DNA of 43,696 bases from a virus (lineage: Duplodnaviria; Heunggongvirae; Uroviricota; Caudoviricetes). The position numbers were made by a program, and so were the translations under genes. This document shows, piece after piece, positions 1 through 10,659 of the stretch. Below the pieces are notes generated by a model. The model saw only the letters and a list, made by a program, of their open reading frames with translations. It made no database searches and was not told where the DNA came from. Each line of letters begins with the position of its first letter. The first letter of the stretch is position 1. The stretch lies in the IMG/VR virus record IMGVR_UViG_2870490042_000005; one strand, 5' to 3'.

Positions 1-20
1 TGCAATTAATAAAATGATTA

Positions 21-48
21 TAGCGGCCTTACATTAGTAAGGCCGCTA
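21..48. terminator. Perfect hairpin (agcggcctta / taaggccgct) in ORF-free leader at left edge of window
   Basis: Inverted repeat read directly from sequence; weak T-run only on minus strand; function not established. Confidence 0.3.
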
Positions 49-252
49 CTCACTATTAAATCCTTTAATTTGCAACAAGAACAGCAGTGTCAGCCCTAGG
101 TTTCGGACTTTGTACCGCTTATCTTGTCTTCAAAATCAGCTCGCATCCTGCACAGTTCAGCGCATTACGTTGTAGATCTGTGTTCTGGTCATTTGTTGAT
201 ACGCGAACATAGCCAATAAGCATGATAGCTCCTCCTGACAAAAACAGGAACG

Positions 253-759
253 ATGCCATTTGCGCGCTATTTCTGCATTTTCATAAACGTTGGTTTGGGC
301 GAAACGATAAATAAAGCCTCCGGAGCTATGCAGAAATCGGCTAATGGAGCTGATATTTCTGATGTATCAGCCTTCCGAAATGCGCTCCAGTTAGGGACCG
401 CCGCAACACGAGATGTTGGAGCAGATAATGCCTCGAAGTTACTGGGTTTAGACAGCTTCAGGTCAATGATGTCAGGGAATGGCTACATCTACATTCCATG
501 CATTGCGACGACAGGAAACCCGGTGAAACTTATGTTGCAGTGGGGAATGGTGGCAACACAAAAGGGAGCTGATGCTGGATATGCCTTACCATTTGCTTTT
601 CCCTATGCAGGCTTATTTGCGACCGGAAACCGTGGAACATCTGGCTACAATGCCGCGATGAATGTGCGTATTGCCAGCAGAACGCATATCAGTATTCAGA
701 ACTGGTCGCCATCCGGAGAGGGCACCGAAGATTGTTGTTTTATCGCGCTGGGGTATTAA
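253..759 (+). CDS. Orphan alternative side-tail-fibre C-terminal segment, inverted relative to stf
   Basis: Shares LQLG-x-AA-x-RDVG motif and C-terminal ...IALGY ending with the stf distal end (…EAIGY); frame closed by stop at 226..228 so no long upstream ORF; first ~17 aa look non-native. Confidence 0.5.
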   Translation: MPFARYFCIFINVGLGETINKASGAMQKSANGADISDVSAFRNALQLGTAATRDVGADNASKLLGLDSFRSMMSGNGYIYIPCIATTGNPVKLMLQWGMVATQKGADAGYALPFAFPYAGLFATGNRGTSGYNAAMNVRIASRTHISIQNWSPSGEGTEDCCFIALGY

Positions 760-761
760 GA

Positions 762-1172
762 ATGAATAAATTTTATAAAGGCTCTTTCTATCCGAAAGCA
801 CTAAAAGAGGTATATATCAGCGCCGGTTCATGGCCTGAAAATGGCGTTGATGTTGATGATGAAACAATGGCAATTTACACAGGCGTAGCGCCACAAGGCA
901 AAACGCTGGGGGCTGATAAAAATGGTAATCCTGCGTGGATTGATATCCCGCCACTCTCCGCTGAACAACAGATTATTCAGGCTGAACAGAAAAGAACGGT
1001 ATTGCGTTCTATGGCTGATAAGGAAATAGCCTGGAGACAGGATGCTTTTGATGCGGAAATCGCGACGGCAGAAGAAACCGCCGCGTTATCTGAATGGAAA
1101 AAATACCGGGTCTTGCTGATGCGCGTTGATACAGCAAAACCCGTATGGCCTGTCAATCCGCAGGATATTTAA
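762..1172 (+). CDS. tfa: Tail fibre assembly protein (Tfa family)
   Basis: C-terminus EIATAEETAALSEWKKYRVLLMRVDT resembles lambda Tfa C-terminal conserved region; ATG at 762 immediately after the fibre-tip stop. Confidence 0.7.
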   Translation: MNKFYKGSFYPKALKEVYISAGSWPENGVDVDDETMAIYTGVAPQGKTLGADKNGNPAWIDIPPLSAEQQIIQAEQKRTVLRSMADKEIAWRQDAFDAEIATAEETAALSEWKKYRVLLMRVDTAKPVWPVNPQDI

Positions 1173-1386
1173 CGGGGGCGTTGTAGGTGGTGACATATTC
1201 AAGCAGTTCTGTTGGATATGTCACCGTTGCTGCATCTCGCTCTACGTTAAATGTATCCGCTCCCCAGATAACACACTCCCTCAAAAATGCCTCCACCTCT
1301 GGCGAGACTTCAACCGCATCATCAGGTCGCTCTTGTTCAGAAACATAAAAACCAACGGTCGTTGGGCTGAAATACATATTCTCCAT
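1153..1386 (-). CDS. Tail fibre assembly protein, truncated N-terminal fragment (77 aa)
   Basis: ATG 5 nt after stf stop (1389..1391); converges on and overlaps the 3' end of the plus-strand tfa; much shorter than typical Tfa (~190 aa). Confidence 0.4.
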   Translation of the reverse strand: MENMYFSPTTVGFYVSEQERPDDAVEVSPEVEAFLRECVIWGADTFNVERDAATVTYPTELLEYVTTYNAPVKYPAD

Positions 1387-1388
1387 AT

Positions 1389-1624
1389 TTAGTATCCTAT
1401 TGCTTCAAAATGCAAAGTCGGAATTTCGCCGAGATTGGGTGTCGTATACGACACAGTGAATCGCGTTCTTGATACGTCAGTGCCAGAATCAGTATCGCGA
1501 TGCGTTGCCAGTGATTTCCCAGCCATTGATGACTGGGTCGAAAAGCTGTAACTCGCTAGTGTTGCCAGCGTTGCTATTTGTGCATTTGGGAATTGTCTGG
1601 GGAAATTAACCCTGTAGTAATGGG
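1389..1624 (-). pseudogene. stf: Distal 3' part of stf, separated from the rest of the gene by IS629
   Basis: Removing IS plus one copy of GGG restores an open frame continuing …GGVLYYT-HYYRVNFPRQ… to stop TAA at 1389..1391, ending …HFEAIGY. Confidence 0.7.
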
Positions 1625-1666
1625 TGAACCGCCCCGGGTTTCCTGGAGAGTGTTTTATCTGTGAAC

Positions 1667-2557
1667 TCAGGCTGCCAGATCATCGTTTCCGATGGAAGCA
1701 TAATAAGCTTTTTCTGCTTCTGCCGGAGGAGTATGGCCCAGCCTTTCCAGCAATCGTCGATTGTTATACCAGTCCACCCACGTGAGTGTGGCCAGTTCCA
1801 CTTCTGCACGGTTTTTCCAGCTCTTACGGTGTATTACCTCCGCTTTGTAAAGACCATTGATGCTCTCCGCCATCGCGTTGTCATACGAGTCGCCTGTACT
1901 TCCTGTTGATGCCAGTAATCCGGCTTCCTTAAGCCGCTGTGTGTAGGCCAGCGATACATACTGAGAACCTTTATCACTGTGATGGACCGTGCCGGACGGT
2001 CGACGGGCCCATAACGCCTGCTCCAGTGCATCCAGCACGAATGTCGTTTCCATGGACGATGAGACCCGCCACCCCACGATGTATCCGGCAAACACATCAA
2101 TGATGAACGCCACATAGACGAAGCCCCGCCATGTGCTGACGTAAGTAAAATCAGCCACCCACAGCTGGTCAGGTCGTTCTGCCACGAACTGACGGTTTAC
2201 GCGGTCGCCTGCGGCAACGGCTTTCCGGCTGATGGTCGTACGGACCTTTTTACCCCGGAGAACACCGGCAAGTCCCATAACCGCCATGAGACGTGCCACA
2301 GTGCATCTGGCCACTCTGATACCTTCCCGTAACAACTGACGCCAGACTTTACGCACACCGTATACCTTGTGATTTTCATCGTATACGCGCTGTATCTCTT
2401 TCTTCAGCCAGTCATCGCGCTGCGCACGGGCACTGCGTTTATCCGGATGATGTCGCTGTTGCTGACAGTGGTAATACGTTGACGGGGCAATATGCAGTTC
2501 GCTGCATAGCGGTCCGACCCCGTACTGCTCACGCAGCTTATCCAGCAGTGGCATCAT
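1667..2557 (-). CDS. IS3-family transposase OrfB (DDE integrase domain)
   Basis: 296-aa ORF with IS3-family OrfB-like sequence (…WVADFTYV…HSDKGSQY…); overlaps orfA end as expected for -1 frameshift fusion. Confidence 0.9.
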
Positions 2558-2880
2558 TTTTTCCAGAGGCGGTCGAACTCCGCCTTCGCAAAATAAGCGG
2601 AAGCCTGGCGAAGGATATCGTTACTGCGGCGCAGTTCACGATTTTCACGTTCCAGCTCTTTCAGACGCTGACGTTCAGCGGTGGTGAGCCCTCCATCACC
2701 GCCCCCGGTATCCCGCTCATGCTGGCGAACCCAGACACGCAGAGTCTCCGGCGTACAGCCAATCTTTGGAGCAATGGAACAAATTGTCGCCCATTGTGAG
2801 TCATATTCGCTCTGACTTTCCAGAACCATACGGACTGCCCGTTGACGGACTTCGGGGGAAAAACGAGTATTTTTAGTCAT
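2554..2880 (-). CDS. IS3-family transposase OrfA (HTH)
   Basis: 108-aa [22 protein letters not shown]… matching IS629/IS1203-type OrfA from memory. Confidence 0.9.
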
Positions 2881-2934
2881 CCTGTTTACCTCTTTCTCAG
2901 GAAGTTTAGTCTCCAGGATTCCCGGGGCGGTTCA

Positions 2935-5695
2935 GGGTGTAGTACAGCACTCCACCAAGAGTAATTGCGTTGAAATTACCAACAGGCGTCAGTGTCACAG
3001 TACCAACCTGTCGAATCATACCATTTGGGAGAATATCCCAGGCAGTTTGTCCGTTTCGCGACATACCAAATGCGGACATGTCCGGGAGTTGATTATTACC
3101 GGTTCCGACATCCCGTTTTGCCGCTTCTCCCAATTGAAGGTATGCGAGAAGACCAGCTACATCCTTTCCACTCAAATTAGTCAGCGTATTGTCCAGCGGT
3201 TGTTTGCCCGCCAGTGCGCTCTGTACTTCGCTTTTGCTGTAGGCATCCAGATCTTTAGGCGTAAGCGTAATATCCTTCGTGCCGTCAAACGGAACGCCGT
3301 TGATATTCCGTGCAGTCTGTAGTTTTGTGGCAGTTGCAGCATTACCAGTGGTGTTCTGATTACCCGTAGTGTTTACACCTGGAAGGTTAATATTTGCAGA
3401 ACCGTCGAAAACAACTCCACCGATAGATCTTGCCGTCTGCAATTTCGTGGCTGTACTTGCATTACCATTCAATGAACCAGTTAATCCACCTGTAACAGAC
3501 AACGGACCTGAAACTGTTCCTCCGGTTGTTGGCAGTGCTCCAATATCTAACGGCGTCGGTTTCTGATGTGTGCTATACATCGTATAAACAACACCATAGG
3601 TAACGCTGGAAGGCTTACTCGCTGAATATGTTGGCGAGGTATAAACAGAAACTGACGCATTTGCAGTACAATCCCAATGGATATTTACACTCGTCGCATA
3701 ATTGCCAATCTCAACGTAAATATCATATGTATCGCCGGATGTGTTGATCCAGGCGAAATTCGTTAATCCGACGGCTGTACGCTTCCACAAAGCCCCGGTA
3801 ATTCCTTTGGGGTTTCCATTGCCTGCTCGTAGAACCAGTTCTGAAATGCCTGCCTGATGTGGGGAACCGACGTTGTAACCAGCGCCACCAATCAATGCGA
3901 TGTAAACGATGGAACTCGCCTGTGGCATGGTTACCGTTGCTAATTTGAACCAACCAGCACCACCGCTGAATGACATTGTTGTTGAGTTAAGCGTACCAAT
4001 ATCTTTCGGCGTCAGTGTTATATCCGCTGAAAGCGCCTTACCATTCACCTTACGGGCAGAAGGTACCCGACCATTCGCATTATCATTAGCTGCTTTCACT
4101 GCTTTCGGTGTCGCGGCAAGCGTTTCAGATGCGCTGTTGGTTGCACTACTGAGCTGGACAATTCCTTTTTGTGCTGTCGTAGCGTCCTGTGCGGTGTATT
4201 TCCCGTTAGCCAGGTCATACGCGGCCTTAACGGCTTTTGGCGTTGCCGCCTGTGACTCGGAAGTGCTGTTGGTCGCACTGCTGAGCTGTACTACCCCCTT
4301 TTTCGTCGTGCTCGCATCCTCAAGCGCCACAGCGGATGCAATATCCTCTGCCCGTTTTGCTGCTGTCTCGGCGCGCGTTGCCGCGGATTCCGCCGTACTT
4401 TTGCTCTGAGCTGCCGCCGTCGCACTGCCAGCTGCCTCTGTCGCCTTCGTGGATGCCGTCGTGGCGCTGCCCTTCGCTGCTGACGCTTGTCTGGTCGCCT
4501 CATCTTTTGAAGCAGACGCCGATGATGCCGATGACGCCGCCGAACTGGCGGACGATGCGGCAGCCGTTTTTGAGGATTCTGCACGGGTTTCCGACGCTTT
4601 CGCGTTCGTTTCGGATGTCTTCGCTGCGGAAGCTGACCTCGCTGCTGCGCTGGCCTGTTCAGTGGCTTCGCCAGCCTTCGTTGTGGCTGTTGAAGCAGAC
4701 GATGCGGCACTTTCTGCCGACTTTCCGGCAGCGGTGGCACTGGCTGAGGCCTGCCCGGCACTTGTTGATGCGGCACTGGCAGATGATGCAGCCGCTGTTT
4801 TTGAGCCTGCCGCAGCTGAGGCACTCTGTCCCGCTGCCGTTTCAGAAGACCTGGCGTTCGTCTCGGACGTTTTTGCCGCCTTCGCGGAATTTCCTGCCGC
4901 CGTTGCCGAGGAAGCGGCACTACTGGCGCTTGATGATGCGTTCGTTTCTGATGATTTCGCTGCCTCTTTTGAGGCCGCCGCATCCCGGGCTGAGGTGGCA
5001 GCTTCTGACGCCTTTGTGGTCGCTGCGGATGCAGAAGTGGCTGCAGATTTTTGTGACGCTGCCGCATTCGTTTCTGACGTTTTCGCCGCACCGGCACTGG
5101 TAGCTGCCGCGCTTTTTGAGGACTCTGCAGCGGCAGCACTTTTTGAGGCTTCAGTGGCCTTTGTTGATGCCGTTCCTGCGCTGGAAGACGCTGACTGAGC
5201 CGACGTCGCGGCCTGCCCGGCTGATGTGCTGGCTGCGCGTGCTGAGCCTGCAGCATCAGTCGCATGGGTTGCCGCCTCACGGGCTGATGTGCTGGCATCA
5301 CTGGCTGACTTCTTCGCGGCTGCCGTGTTCTGTGCCACCACGGACGCGTTACGCGCCACCTCTTCCACCATCAGCTCAAAACGGCGCAGTGCCTCCGGAC
5401 GGGCATCATCCTCCGTCATGGCACCGAGAAAATCATTCAGCGTACCGGGTCGGGAATCTTCATACACGGTGATGGTCCCGGCATGTGACGGCGGGAATCC
5501 TTCCACCAACAGAATAACGCTGTACTGACCGTACTCAACGTCCATGCTGTAACGCCCGGCTTCATCCGGATTTTCAGATGCCAGCGTGTTCACCACCACC
5601 GTGGTACTGTTACGTTTTGCTTTCAGCTGGATTGTGCAGTTCTGTACCGGTTTTCCTGTGCCGTCTTTCAGTACACCTGAAATTTTTACTGCCAT
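2935..5695 (-). pseudogene. stf: Side tail fibre protein Stf, proximal part, interrupted at 3' end by IS629
   Basis: Starts MAVKISGVLKDGTGKPVQNCTIQLKA (ATG at 5695; ORF track start is an upstream GTG); long Ala/Ser-rich repeat region; ORF runs into the IS end giving an artificial C-terminus …LNRPGNPGD. Confidence 0.85.
4050..4310 (-). repeat. Tandem ~117-bp (39-aa) repeat inside stf
   Basis: Protein repeats KGVVQLSSATNSTSESQAATPKAVKAAYDLANG / KGIVQLSSATNSASETLAATPKAVKAANDNANG; coordinates approximate. Confidence 0.5.
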
Positions 5696-5703
5696 ATTCA
5701 CCC

Positions 5704-5733
5704 CACAAAAAAGCCCGCCTGAAACGGCGGGCT
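5704..5733 (-). terminator. Rho-independent terminator between lom and stf
   Basis: Stem agcccgcc/ggcgggct with run of six T on the minus strand. Confidence 0.6.
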
Positions 5734-5759
5734 GTCATAACACTGTGTTACCTGGCTAA

Positions 5760-6359
5760 TCAGAATTTATAACCGACACCCACGATGAAACCGTCAGTGC
5801 GCCAGTCGCCACTGCCGGAACCTTCATAAGCGACATCAATGGCCACGGACTCGGTCGGGTTAAACTGCACGCCAGCCCCCCACGCCAGAGACGTGTTGCT
5901 GTGGCGACCGTCATCACTTCCGGTCAGCACATCGTGCGTTTTCCCCTTATTGTCAGTTACGCGGATATAATCCCCGGAGAAAGTCGACACACGGCTGTAA
6001 GCTACACCCGCCATCGCATACGCGCTGAACCATTCATTCACGCGCACAGACGGCCCCGCCATTACGCTGAACCAGCGGTTACGAACGGAATCTTCATGCC
6101 AGCGGGTATCGCTGTAACGGGTCAGCTGGCGATTCTTGTCTCCTGCATAGCTGAATGACGTCACCAGCCCCAGTGTGTCCGTAAACTCATAACGGTATTT
6201 CACGTTAATCCCGTTCAGATCATCACTGCCGGGGACGTTCGTCGAGGCATGAAGATACCCCGCGCTCAGCGTGGACTGATGTTCAGACGCCCATGCAGGC
6301 GCACCGGATACGGCCAGACAAATGGCTGCGGACAAAATTGCTGCACAAACTTTACGCAT
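5760..6359 (-). CDS. lom: Outer membrane protein Lom (Ail/PagC/Lom family)
   Basis: 199 aa with signal peptide; matches lambda Lom from memory; ends …VGVGYKF. Confidence 0.9.
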   Translation of the reverse strand: MRKVCAAILSAAICLAVSGAPAWASEHQSTLSAGYLHASTNVPGSDDLNGINVKYRYEFTDTLGLVTSFSYAGDKNRQLTRYSDTRWHEDSVRNRWFSVMAGPSVRVNEWFSAYAMAGVAYSRVSTFSGDYIRVTDNKGKTHDVLTGSDDGRHSNTSLAWGAGVQFNPTESVAIDVAYEGSGSGDWRTDGFIVGVGYKF

Positions 6360-6381
6360 AATTACCTCTCGCTTTTCTGCA

Positions 6382-6407
6382 ATAAAAAAGGCGTCATTCC
6401 TGACGCC
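6382..6407 (-). terminator. Rho-independent terminator downstream of J
   Basis: Stem ggcgtca/tgacgcc followed by T-run on minus strand. Confidence 0.5.
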
Positions 6408-6429
6408 CTTTATTGGGGTTATAAATATT

Positions 6430-9400
6430 TCAACGAATACTGATGCCGGAAGCGGCTTTTTTGGTCACAATCACCGTACAGTCGGTGATATTGCCTGCCC
6501 CCTGATTGCCTTTCTGGAAAATCTTAAACTCCAGAGTGACGCTTCCCCTGCCACTCGGCATATCAATAACTGCACTGTAACTACCGGGAATGGCCCCTTT
6601 AGTTTCTCTGGATGCGATTAATACGCCGTTTTTGCGAACTTCAAAACCATAACCCGTGTATCTTGTGCCTCCTGGGTTATTTCCGCTCCCCGGATCGTCA
6701 TACGCTATACCGTTAAAAATAATGGGCGGAATAATAATCTGGCGGTCAAAGTTATGATCATCGCTGATGGTGACTGTAACCGTACCGTTTGGTGTTTCCG
6801 TGTTACCCCACGTACCGACTTTTTTCGGGAAGGCTTTTGATACAGCTTTAACGAAATCTCCTCTGACCTGGGTCGCCTCCAGCATGCCCTTAATCGTACA
6901 GTTCTGGTTAATCGTGACATTGTTGAGCGTTCCTGAGTTCGCATTCACACTGCCACTGATATCCGCATTTTTCGCCGTCAGTCTCCCGTCTGATGTCAGG
7001 GAAAATGCCGGAGGATTACCGCCGCTGGTAATGGTGGGGGCCGTCAGGCGTTTCAGGAACACTTCATTCATGAATATCTGATCACCCTGACCAACAAACA
7101 TCGGCTTTGTGTTGCCATTCGCAGGATTAATCATCGCAATCCTGTCTGCCGCCAGCAGCACCTGACTCTGCATTCCTGCTGGCGTATTCTCAATACCGGC
7201 ACCGATACCCGCAATATAAAGGCGTCCGTCCTGCATCTGCTGCAGTTTCACGGCCCACATGCTGTTCAGGTTATTATTTGTATCAACCTGAACCTTCTGT
7301 ATCTGCTGGATCGCTGCACTCTGGTCTTCCAGTTTCTTATTGACGGTCTGTGTGATTTCATTGCTGACATCCGTAATGGATGTCCTGATTTCAGCCAGGT
7401 CAGGCGCAAGCTGGCCGTTATCAATCTGCGTCCACAGCTCCTGAGCCAGATGGGTTTTCCCTATCTCGCCTTTGAAAAAATCCAGATAGCCGGATGCGTC
7501 ATCACTCGGCTGACCAACAGCCTCCACGAATGCCGATTTGCCAACGGTGTTCACACTGCGGATATAAAAGTAATAATCATGGCCCGGTTTGATATTGATA
7601 CTGGCGGCTATCCAGTACAGCGCCGTGCCAAGATAGCGTGCTGTGGTTTCAACCTGCCTGATATCCGCAATCCGCTTTTCCGAGAACCAGAACTCAAACT
7701 GTACCGTCGGATCATAAACCGCAAGATGCGGCGTGGCGGTTATCTGAAAATAGCCCGGCGTCAGCTCAATCCGCGACGGCGCTGCCGGTGCGGCAATCCG
7801 GAACGATACCGACGCCGGATCGCCCTGCTGCCCCCACGCATTTACTGCCCGGACTGTCAGCCTGTAGTTCCCCAGCGCCAGTTGTGTGAAGCGGTAAGTG
7901 GTTTCCGTCGTCCGGGCCGTGCTGACCAGCCGCTCACTGCCGTCATCCGCTGCCACGGTCAGGCGAAGCATAAAGCTCACCCCCTTCACCACCTTCGGCG
8001 TGTCCCAGCGCGCCAGCACCTGATATTCCCCGCTGTCTGCGGTGACTTCGGCAGTCAGGTGCTGCACCGCTGGCGGCGTGACACCATTCACCGTGCCACT
8101 CTGTTCGCCGTCAAAGTGCGCCCCGTTATCCACGATGGCCTCTTTTTCCGGCACATGCTGCACGGCGGTGATGGCATACATGCCGTCGTCGTTTTCACGG
8201 ATACTCACACAGCGGAATAGTCGCTGGCGCAGCGTCGGCAGCTTCAGCCCCCATACGCTGTATTCAGCAACACCGTCAGGAACACGGCTCACTTTTACCT
8301 TCACGCCGTCGGTGACGGACTGGACCTCCACGCTGACCGGATTGCCACTTCCGTCAACCAGGCTTATCAGCGTGGTACCGGAGGATGGCAGCGTGATTTC
8401 ACGGTCGAGCGTCAGCGTCCGGGTCTGGCTGTTCACCGCCAGCACGCGCCCGCCGATGCTGATCCCCGCATAGTCATCATCGCAGATTTCAATAACATCA
8501 CCCGGCACATGGCGAAGCCCTTCGGCACCCACGCTGAAATCCACGGTCTGCGTTTCCAGCAGTTCTGTTTTAATCAGCCACAGCCCGGCGCGGTGTGCCT
8601 GCCCCCGGCTGGTACAGCCAAAGGCATCCATCTTCGTGACATTACGACCGTAACGGGCAATGGCCTGCGTATCTTCAACAAGCTCTGTTGCCGTCTCCCA
8701 GCCGTTGTCCGGGTCAATCCAGTTCACCTCAACGGCATTATGGCGGTCCTTCAGGGCGCTGAAGCTGTAGCGGAACGGCGCGCCATCATCCGGCATCACC
8801 ACATTACTGCGGTTATAGGTCCACACCTTATCCGACGGTCGGTCCTGCACGAACGTCAGCGTCTGCCCGTTCCATACCGGCATACAGCGCATCGCCGAGC
8901 AGAAATCACTGAGCACATCCCACGCCTTGCGCTGTGTGGTCAGGTACGCATTACAGGTGATGCGCGGCTCCGTGCTGCCAAAGCCGTCCGGCACTGACTG
9001 GTCGCAGTACTGGCCGATGACATACAGCGCCCATTTGTCCACATCCGCCGCACCAAGACGTTTTCCCATGCCGTAGCGCGGGTGGGTCAGCATATCCCAC
9101 AGACACCAGGCCATGTTGTTGCTGTATGCCGGTTTTAACGTTCCGTCCCAGATACCGCTGTATTGCCGCGTCTGCGGGTTATAGTTCGACGGCACCTGCA
9201 GAATGCGCCCGCGAAGATGATAATTACGACTCACCTGCTGGCTGCCGAACTGCTCCGAGTCCACCTGTACGCCGACCAGTGCCGTGTTCGGGTAGCACTG
9301 TTTCACATCGATGATTTCGGTGTATGACGACCAGAGCGTTTTGTTCTGCAGCTGGTCTGTGGTGCTGTCCGGCGTCATCCTGCGCATCCGGATGTTGAAC

Positions 9401-9927
9401 GGGCGCGGCGGCAGATTATCCACCACTACCGAGGCCAGATACTGCGAGGTGGTTTTGCCCTTAATGGTGATGTCTTTTTCCGTCACCCAGCCACCGTTAC
9501 GTTGTATCTGAACCAGCAGGCGAACTTCCGACGGATTCCTGTCCCCCTTTGAGGTGGTTTCCACCAGTGCCTGCACACCGAAGGTAAAGCGCAGACGGTC
9601 AATGTTTGCCGACGTGATGGTCCGGGTGATCGGCGTGTCATATTTCACTTCCGTACCCAGTACCGTCTCGGAACCTGATGATTCAAATCCCTCCGGCGGT
9701 GTCTGTTCCTGCTCACCTGCCCGGAACACCACCGTGACACCGGAGATATTGGTATTCCCCTCACTGTCCAGCACCGGTGTACTGTTCAGCAGCACGCTTT
9801 TTAATCCATCCACCGGACCTTCAACCGGCCCTTCGCTGATGGCATCGATCACACTCAGCAGCTGCGTGGACTTCAGGTTGTCCTTCGCTTCGCGCGGGGT
9901 ATGCCCCTTACTGCCGCCTTTACCCAT
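6430..9927 (-). CDS. J: Tail tip host-specificity protein J
   Basis: 1165 aa; N-terminus [24 protein letters not shown] and most of the body match lambda J; C-terminal ~150 aa appear divergent. Confidence 0.9.
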
Positions 9928-9987
9928 TCGTCATGCTCCATAAACGATAAAACCGCCCGGAGGCGGTTTCACATAAAACATTTTGCA

Positions 9988-10659
9988 TCAGCGACCAATC
10001 ACCACAACCTGACCACCATCCCCTTCGTCTGCCGTGCTGATCTCCTGAGAAACCACGCGTGACCCCACGCGCATTTCACCGTACAGAACCGGCAGAACAT
10101 TGCCCTGGGCAACCATGTTATCCAGTGAGGAGAAATAGGTGTTCTGTTTGCCGTTATCCGTTGTCTGTGTACGGGGAGTTCTGGCTTTCGGTGCCAGCAT
10201 CTGCGCCACACCACCGAGCACCATACTGGCACCGAGAGAAAACAGGATGCCGGTCATACCTCCGGCCCCAATGGCTGCCCCCCATGCTGCAAGGGTGGCT
10301 CCGGCGGTAAAGAATGATCCGGCAATGGCGGCAGCCCCCAGGACAATCTGGAATACGCCACCTGACTTGGCCCCGGCGACTCTGGGAACAATATGAATCA
10401 CAGCGCCATCAGGCAGAGTCTCATGTAACTGCGCCGTTAACCCGGACGTGCTGACGTCCCGCCCGGCAATCCGTACCTGATACCAGCCGTCGCTCAGTTT
10501 CTGACGAAACACCGGGAGCTGTGTGGCCAGTGCGCGGATGGCTTCAGCCCCCGTTTTCACACGAAGGTCGATGCGGCGGCCAAATCGTTGCAAATCCCCG
10601 TAAAGGCAGATGCGCGCCATGCCCGATGACGCCAGAGGGAGTGTGTGCGTCGCTGCCAT
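9988..10659 (-). CDS. I: Tail assembly protein I
   Basis: 223 aa, lambda I-like (MAATHTLPLAS…). Confidence 0.9.
   Translation of the reverse strand: MAATHTLPLASSGMARICLYGDLQRFGRRIDLRVKTGAEAIRALATQLPVFRQKLSDGWYQVRIAGRDVSTSGLTAQLHETLPDGAVIHIVPRVAGAKSGGVFQIVLGAAAIAGSFFTAGATLAAWGAAIGAGGMTGILFSLGASMVLGGVAQMLAPKARTPRTQTTDNGKQNTYFSSLDNMVAQGNVLPVLYGEMRVGSRVVSQEISTADEGDGGQVVVIGR

Follow-up and report, generated by a model that had tools for sequence, protein, structure and literature searches.

The left end of a 43,696-nucleotide (nt) stretch of Caudoviricetes DNA (IMG/VR record IMGVR_UViG_2870490042_000005; hereafter the window) carries a tail-fiber switch of the e14 P type, the type of the Mu G and P1 C segments, next to a dead copy of its cognate invertase gene, pin. 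We give a probability of about 0.8 to the reading that this is an invertible switch whose own pin is dead and which is turned by an invertase acting in trans. The anatomy of the segment, its two crossover sites, the dead pin gene, and inversion isomers that differ at the level of the site cores were all observed. A preliminary description, made from the letters of the DNA, had noted that two plus-strand open reading frames (ORFs, 253..759 and 762..1172) converge with a minus-strand stf tip ending in EAIGY and a 77-amino-acid (aa) ORF, and had taken this as the footprint of a segment with the Sv-U / U'-Sv' layout. The ORFs and their Pfam matches bear out the convergent layout, and the presence of both sites, in-frame joining both ways, and isomers in complete genomes carries the invertible-segment reading beyond a footprint. 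The parts of the switch are these.

291..3136, no strand: invertible segment, about 2.85 kb with an insertion sequence (IS) and about 1.53 kb without it; the exact inverse is found in strain 164.
278..303, no strand: crossover site A, pix-type and pin-proximal, TTTTCATAAACGTTGGTTTGGGCGAA, with core TT at 290..291.
3125..3150, no strand: crossover site B inside stf, TTCTCCCAATTGAAGGTATGCGAGAA, with core AA at 3137..3138, at codons ..LLAYLQLGE.
3151..5701, minus strand: constant part (Sc) of the side tail fiber gene stf, with phage_tail_N and Phage_fiber_2 domains, downstream of lom and J.
1389..3124, minus strand: variable tip Sv in the expressed position, 140 aa after ..LGE, ending in EAIGY (…HFEAIGY), with a match to Gp53-like_C (E=1.2e-6).
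1153..1386, minus strand: 77-aa ORF travelling with tip Sv, of conserved length, with a match to phrog_188 (E=8e-5) over aa 1-31 only.
253..759, plus strand: alternative fiber tip Sv' in the silent position, 168 aa, ending in IALGY, with a match to Gp53-like_C (E=1.8e-8).
762..1172, plus strand: Tfa', the tail-fiber assembly chaperone travelling with Sv', 136 aa, with matches to Caudo_TAP (E=2.4e-31) and phrog_188 (E=3.8e-42).

The reference for the crossover sites was the P segment of e14 in K-12, which is bounded on its pin-proximal side by TTCTCCCAAACCAACGTTTATGAAAA, beside pinE (locus L003, 4606..4631), and on its distal side by CTCTCGAAAACCTTGGTTTGGGAGAA, inside stfP at codons ..ENLGLGE; these inverted repeats are the ones given in PMC12529663. 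The reverse complement of site A agrees with the pin-proximal e14 site at 25 of 26 positions, and site A lies at the same distance from the start of pin as the e14 site, reading as ..INVGLGE in the plus-strand ORF. The match is much stronger than the one for which the preliminary description had singled out the stretch at 278..303, namely about 17 of 26 positions of the gix site, and site A would be closer to pix than to gix. Site B, found by alignment to the e14 sites together with a half-site scan, agrees with the distal e14 site at 20 of 26 positions (TTCTCCCAATTG AA GGTATGCGAGAA). Its inner half-site is degenerate, with CCCAATTG in place of CCCAAACC and three core-adjacent bases differing.

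In the scan, every 26-mer of the 43.7-kb window was compared with the half-site consensus TTCTCNNAAACC over 20 scored positions, with 100 shuffles as control. Sites A (17/20) and B (16/20) came out as the top two, the shuffles gave about 0.01 matches of at least 16 each and none of at least 17, and no third crossover site was found in the window by this consensus. The preliminary description had seen no partner for site A by eye; the partner is site B, the second-best site of the window, although a search for a second copy of 278..303 with at most 3 mismatches found none and a generic inverted-repeat finder left A and B unpaired. The two sites are identical to each other at 16 of 26 positions, with a longest identical run of at most 5 nt, and they lie in inverted orientation, since the plus-strand cores read TT at A and AA at B. 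The segment is thus flanked by two 26-bp, imperfectly palindromic, inverted sites with a shared 2-bp core. Both stand at the constant/variable junction (..LGE|) of the fiber ORF, and the reading frame is kept both ways, giving ORFs of 999 aa in one orientation (IS removed) and 1010 aa in the other.

We built the predicted junction of the inverted form by flipping the DNA between the two cores, so that the stf constant part is followed by TT and then by Sv'. The preliminary description had proposed a search for inversion isomers, and they exist: 41 complete E. coli genomes contain the stf-side hybrid junction, 100% identical throughout its 823 nt, and at least 20 contain the reciprocal pin-side junction, 100% identical throughout 651 nt. 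The closest comparison is with strain 164, in which window positions 1..291 and 3137..10550 are colinear and 100% identical, and 287..3138 is inverted with 1 mismatch in 2852 nt, the IS included. Because the flanks are colinear and 287..3138 is inverted, the breakpoints fall within 287..291 and 3137..3138, on the 2-bp cores. Isomers among complete genomes hence differ by exchange at the core dinucleotide. Once flipped, stf is intact (1008-1010 aa) and is followed by Tfa', and the IS-damaged tip lies in the silent position.

The same isomers might in principle arise if inverted repeats underwent RecA-type homologous recombination, or if phages traded the region with one another. In favor of this, lambdoid prophages show a high degree of mosaicism, and the module formed by the dead pin and a neighboring DUF262-domain gene is found beside different cassettes in different prophage types. 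Homologous recombination is nevertheless not credible, because the 16/26 identity of A and B includes no identical run above 5 nt (the repeat finder, as noted, does not pair them); each breakpoint coincides with the 2-bp core of one of the two top-scoring pix-like sites; and the sequence on either side is 100% identical, with no imported polymorphism. We therefore regard this explanation as very improbable.

The IS within the segment makes it possible to order the inversions relative to the loss of pin.

1625..2934, minus strand: IS629-family (IS3 family) insertion sequence, 1310 bp, orfA/orfB, with target duplication GGG (1622..1624 and 2935..2937).

The element, which the preliminary description had missed, sits inside the invertible segment and interrupts stf. 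It has the size (about 1.3 kb), the orfA/orfB pair (HTH_Tnp_1, rve), the terminal inverted repeats and the 3-bp duplication of IS629, and the same copy in strain CREC8 is labeled 'IS629 family' by the Prokaryotic Genome Annotation Pipeline (PGAP). The empty site is present in strain 32-4, where window positions 1..1626 (at 100%) and 2935..8939 (at 99.95%) directly abut. Removal of the IS in silico yields a 999-aa stf ORF, and an intact 999-aa ORF is also present in strain 32-4. Because the IS breaks tip Sv, splitting it into 1389..1624 and 2938..3124, the isomer in the window is unable to make the full side fiber.

The junction between the IS and the tip is 100% identical in 10 records, all 10 of them flipped relative to the window, so that the window itself holds the IS in the other orientation. 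Genomes that lack the IS and carry the frameshifted pin described below are likewise found in both orientations: strains 32-4, WCHEC025985, 3090 and BDSF8-3 in that of the window, and NDM6 with many ST167-like assemblies in the flipped one. All four combinations of IS and orientation thus exist on the same dead-pin background, which requires at least two inversions after the death of pin. These observations bear on two further explanations. According to the first, independent IS629 insertions, or assembly choices and errors, mimic the four combinations, and a single inversion took place, possibly before pin decayed. IS629 is indeed abundant in E. coli (6745 records matched), and the configuration of the window was not found among the complete genomes. 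Yet the window and the 10 records share the IS at one and the same nucleotide, alike in orientation, duplication and sequence; the isomers come from many independent complete assemblies; and the frameshifted pin is common to all classes. We consider this account highly unlikely.

The second holds that the segment was invertible as long as pin was intact and has been a frozen relic since pin was truncated. The preliminary description had itself named this outcome, to be expected if there were no recombinase nearby, no inverted partner site and no sign of inversion; the first of these holds in that the cognate gene is dead, while the partner and the isomers have been found. The dead pin, the degenerate site B and a strong correlation between orientation and lineage all fit a relic. 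On the other side, the same deletion and the same lineage-specific frameshift occur in both orientations, with and without the IS, which calls for at least two inversions after pin death, and apart from the inversion a single base in 2852 nt separates the window from strain 164. We disfavor the relic and think it improbable, if a little less so than the two accounts above.

Three observations touch on the IS and on stf. In strain CREC8 the same IS629 copy has been invaded by a group II intron (ltrA; locus L006, 7790..11273). Strain 164 has a second lambdoid prophage, beside potB, whose stf end also carries an IS629 and a group II intron (locus L011, 2559..6574). PGAP labels the stf genes of strains 32-4 and 2017.15.02CC as pseudogenes 'missing C-terminus'; since the 999-aa ORF is complete (locus L001, 7389..10388, equal to window 1389..5701 minus the IS), the call is an annotation artifact of the unusual tip. 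The same segment, in the orientation of the window, is also present in the related phage phi458 (OP434518; locus L008, 4508..8305), which was isolated and propagated on E. coli MC1061; in this phage an IS1 lies within Sv', and the annotated 'DNA invertase' is short (92 aa).

Immediately to the left of site A lies what is left of pin.

90..223, minus strand: dead pin, a PinE-type serine invertase gene, reduced to its first ~134 nt, with a -1 frameshift in the A-run 132..135 and the 3' ~420 nt deleted.
139..202, minus strand: candidate equivalent of the recombinational (Fis) enhancer in the pin stub, 64 nt identical to K-12 pinE.
1..89, no strand: non-pin DNA in place of the 3' part of pin, the 3' flank of the DUF262-domain gene according to the annotation of strain 32-4 and alignment with intact pinE loci.

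The preliminary description had reported no invertase gene to the left of the cassettes, and here it must be corrected, as the remnant runs on the minus strand from 223 to about 90. Its product (MLIGYVRVSTNDQNTDLQRNALNCAGCELI…) is the N-terminus of PinE with the catalytic serine region (Pfam Resolvase, E=1e-5), and tblastn with PinE recovers aa 1-34 and 31-44 in two frames. Homology to intact pinE is lost left of ~90-100, where the 3' flank of the DUF262 gene starts; the gene itself ends just left of the window start, and a strong hairpin lies at 20..49 in the replacing DNA. PGAP annotates the remnant in strain 32-4 as a frameshifted, incomplete recombinase, and strain 2017.15.02CC has the same cassettes beside an intact 184-aa pinE at the same position. 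No functional serine invertase gene adjoins the segment in the window.

The DUF262/pin deletion junction occurs in 287 complete E. coli genomes (counting matches from query base 1), and the same deletion endpoint appears in four other prophage contexts (loci L012-L015, around 4500..4730). The deletion is a single old event. The -1 frameshift is common to the window and strains 32-4, 164 and NDM6 and is missing from other deleted alleles, which makes it lineage-specific. Elsewhere, the DUF262/dead-pin arrangement adjoins P-type segments in e14-like baseplate prophages (tRNA-Pro/yejM), at flxA/ydfV, and beside a type ISP restriction-modification gene. The junction behaves as a mobile mosaic module.

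Wild-type invertases of this family require a Fis-bound enhancer in cis. The enhancer of Hin spans 65 bp, lies ~100 bp from a hix site, and has ATTTA and TAATG tracts between its two Fis sites (PMC3798978). The stretch 139..202 is contained entirely in the stub, at the place that aligns with the Hin enhancer; it aligns with the 5' end of the Hin-like invertase gene of Klebsiella phage KP12, ends just before the frameshift, and has its nearer end ~95 bp from the center of site A; the ATTTA/TAATG tracts fall at codons 8 to ~29 in both the Hin-like KP12 gene and pin. The pin stub may therefore still serve as an enhancer.

A tblastn search with PinE detected no other serine recombinase in the window, and because pin is dead the invertase would have to act in trans. 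Gin, Cin, Pin and Hin complement one another, and action in trans is established in this family. The e14 P segment, for example, is inverted by PinQ, which the Qin prophage encodes (PMC12529663). We queried complete genomes with a lineage-specific anchor joined to the deleted 3' 404 nt of pinE. A second chromosomal match was obtained in 7 of the 8 distinct IS-bearing relatives listed for this query (two accessions stand for a single assembly, and the list lacks CREC8), and this second matching place is taken to be a pinE-like gene. Ends of the pinE 3' type are present in 1802 of 5426 complete genomes. No recombinase was found in the potB-side prophage of strain 164, and the lineage of the window is absent from the best 60 matches to the pinE 3' end. 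A trans-acting Pin-family invertase would be the simplest cause of the inversions.

Several points weigh against a switch that is still being turned in this way. An intact invertase gene has been located in no genome of the lineage, the second match having been counted only; e14 is absent from icd in strain 164, so that the second gene there is not that of e14; and the pinE-like second locus was not seen in some flipped genomes, within the sensitivity of megablast. The near-identical relatives with intact pinE are all in the orientation of the window and the flipped assemblies are all dead-pin, so that orientation looks largely clonal and flips may be rare. The degenerate inner half-site of B may make the reaction slow, and perhaps it is through this site that flips are rare. 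The position of the enhancer within pin is placed by homology to hin, and that the two tips confer different host ranges is itself presumed.

With these points in mind, the trans-acting model can be set out as follows. In the orientation of the window, the stf constant part is read across site B (..LQLGE|) into tip Sv and then into the 77-aa factor. Inversion between B and A joins the constant part in frame to Sv', followed by Tfa', giving an intact 1008-aa Stf, and the flip at the same time moves the IS-damaged tip into the silent position. By the standard reaction of DNA invertases, invertase dimers would bind both 26-bp sites and the Fis-bound enhancer would assemble the complex; both sites would then be cleaved at the central 2 bp (TT/AA), one half rotated by 180 degrees, and the ends religated. 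A DUF262 defence-type gene has replaced most of pin, leaving ~134 nt, with the lineage frameshift as an extra lesion. The enzyme would be supplied in trans by another Pin-family gene in the cell, and the stub retains the stretch that corresponds to the enhancer.

The two cassettes each consist of a tip and a chaperone, although the second chaperone, the 77-aa ORF, is atypical. The LQLG-AA-RDVG motif is present in both tips, and the IALGY end reported in the preliminary description is there as well. The variable part of Sv' covers 304..759 (151 aa); its ORF opens 25 nt before the segment and continues across site A. A promoter scan found no sigma-70-like promoter in 1..1700, and separate expression of the pin-proximal ORF 253..759 is for this reason unsupported. 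Pairwise similarity between Sv and Sv' is marginal (E=0.059), though both match Gp53-like_C, and the receptor specificity of the two tips likely differs.

The 77-aa ORF had been described as a tfa cut short at the overlap with the opposing cassette. We found 34 homologues, nearly all of them 77 aa long, with 59-97% identity in Citrobacter, Enterobacter and Phytobacter. Since the homologues in other genera also have 77 aa, the ORF was not cut locally, and the constant homologue length rules out a locally truncated Tfa. A short assembly factor is its probable identity. The 77-aa protein family always follows the ..AAKRDVG..EAIGY type of fiber tip, in several enterobacterial genera. Tips of the ..AAKRDVG type also adjoin a recombinase gene on two ~95-kb plasmids (94-96 kb; H289 and H290), at ~92% identity, and these plasmids may be P1-like phage-plasmids.

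A second LQLGTAATRDVG motif lies at 383..421 inside Sv', 30 aa past the crossover site, and parallels the stf ..LQLGE|AAKRDVG junction. It was tried as a third crossover site and rejected, with 8 of 26 positions matching the pix site in a hand alignment and a score below the threshold of the site scan. The motif may be the fossil junction of an older cassette fusion.

The segment closes off a prophage. A lambdoid prophage that looks complete is inserted at tRNA-Thr/proA, and window positions 1..5701 are its distal end. Strain 32-4 has a near-identical prophage, and by its PGAP annotation the genes follow one another from the far window end as tRNA-Thr/proA, integrase, immunity, replication, lysis, head, tail, J, lom, and stf. 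The stf gene starts at 5701 on the minus strand, and its constant part is read inward, toward the segment. One copy of a 56-bp repeat (96% identical) lies at the far end of the prophage, at window positions 42245..42298, and the other in the strain 32-4 locus (L001, 476..531), 5.5 kb left of the window start and near a further integrase gene. The two copies may be att-type repeats at the borders of a composite element larger than the prophage.

A further, tentative possibility, which we think less likely than not, is that the DUF262/dead-pin arrangement reflects no simple decay and is a stable design, an 'orphan switch' flipped only by the Pin-family invertase of a co-resident prophage or an incoming phage. 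The defence gene has replaced the invertase, yet the deletion spared both sites and the stub thought to bear the enhancer, and what gets switched would be the fiber or a StfE2-like surface-blocking product. Were this true, the host range or defence state of one prophage would be coupled to the presence of others.

By its sequence and its working, the segment can be assigned to the family of invertible tail-fiber segments that includes e14 P, Mu G and P1 C. It is most like e14 P with PinE: the two pin-proximal sites share 25 of 26 positions, crossover takes place at equivalent codons of the fiber gene (..LGLGE/..LQLGE), two tip and chaperone cassettes converge, pin is transcribed away from the segment across the same spacer with an identical 64-nt enhancer-equivalent, and a restriction or defence gene lies just beyond pin (mcrA in e14, DUF262 here). 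It differs in that pin here is only ~134 nt long and frameshifted, the fiber is a long lambda-type Stf (~1000 aa) instead of the 209-aa StfP, the segment measures 1.53 kb (2.85 kb with the IS) instead of 1797 bp, and one inner half-site is degenerate and one chaperone a short 77 aa. With Mu G/Gin and P1 C/Cin it shares the Sc | Sv-U / U'-Sv' logic, the 26-bp sites with a 2-bp core, and an invertase gene that adjoins the segment from outside; the difference is that the segment here belongs to a lambdoid siphovirus and has no functional cognate invertase. In Mu G and P1 C the enhancer is part of the invertase gene, at its 5' end, and one enzyme can stand in for another.

For the trans-acting enzyme there are two precedents. 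Fin, of Fels-2, reportedly turns a segment alongside Hin in Salmonella from another place in the genome (Kutsukake and colleagues, 2006, cited in PMC4272514). The e14 P segment, too, is turned by an enzyme whose gene lies outside e14, PinQ of Qin (PMC12529663). Those segments also have a working invertase of their own, whereas here trans action would be the sole source. Klebsiella phage KP12 (partial record OM835952) has an invertible fiber segment with the same tip type (..NLGLGE|AAKRDVG.., ending in ..HFESMGY). Behind that tip comes a homologue of the 77-aa ORF, the two converge on a Tfa, and a Hin-like invertase adjoins. KP12 differs in having an intact invertase, a canonical half-site, and a tail with a P2/Mu-type baseplate. 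The KP12 homologue of the 77-aa ORF is unannotated (locus L009, ~1118..1360).

The mechanism itself is textbook and the gain over these systems is incremental. What distinguishes the present segment is that it is orphaned, would be flipped in trans, and has one orientation made defective by an IS. It provides a natural case, resolved to the base pair, of an invertible fiber segment that has outlived its own invertase and has undergone later flips. For annotators and for surveys of inversions, a neighboring recombinase pseudogene is thus no ground for dismissing such cassettes as relics. The segment also lends support to the idea that cross-talk ties the Pin-family invertases and segments of the prophages in one cell into a network, as was recently shown for the action of PinQ on e14.

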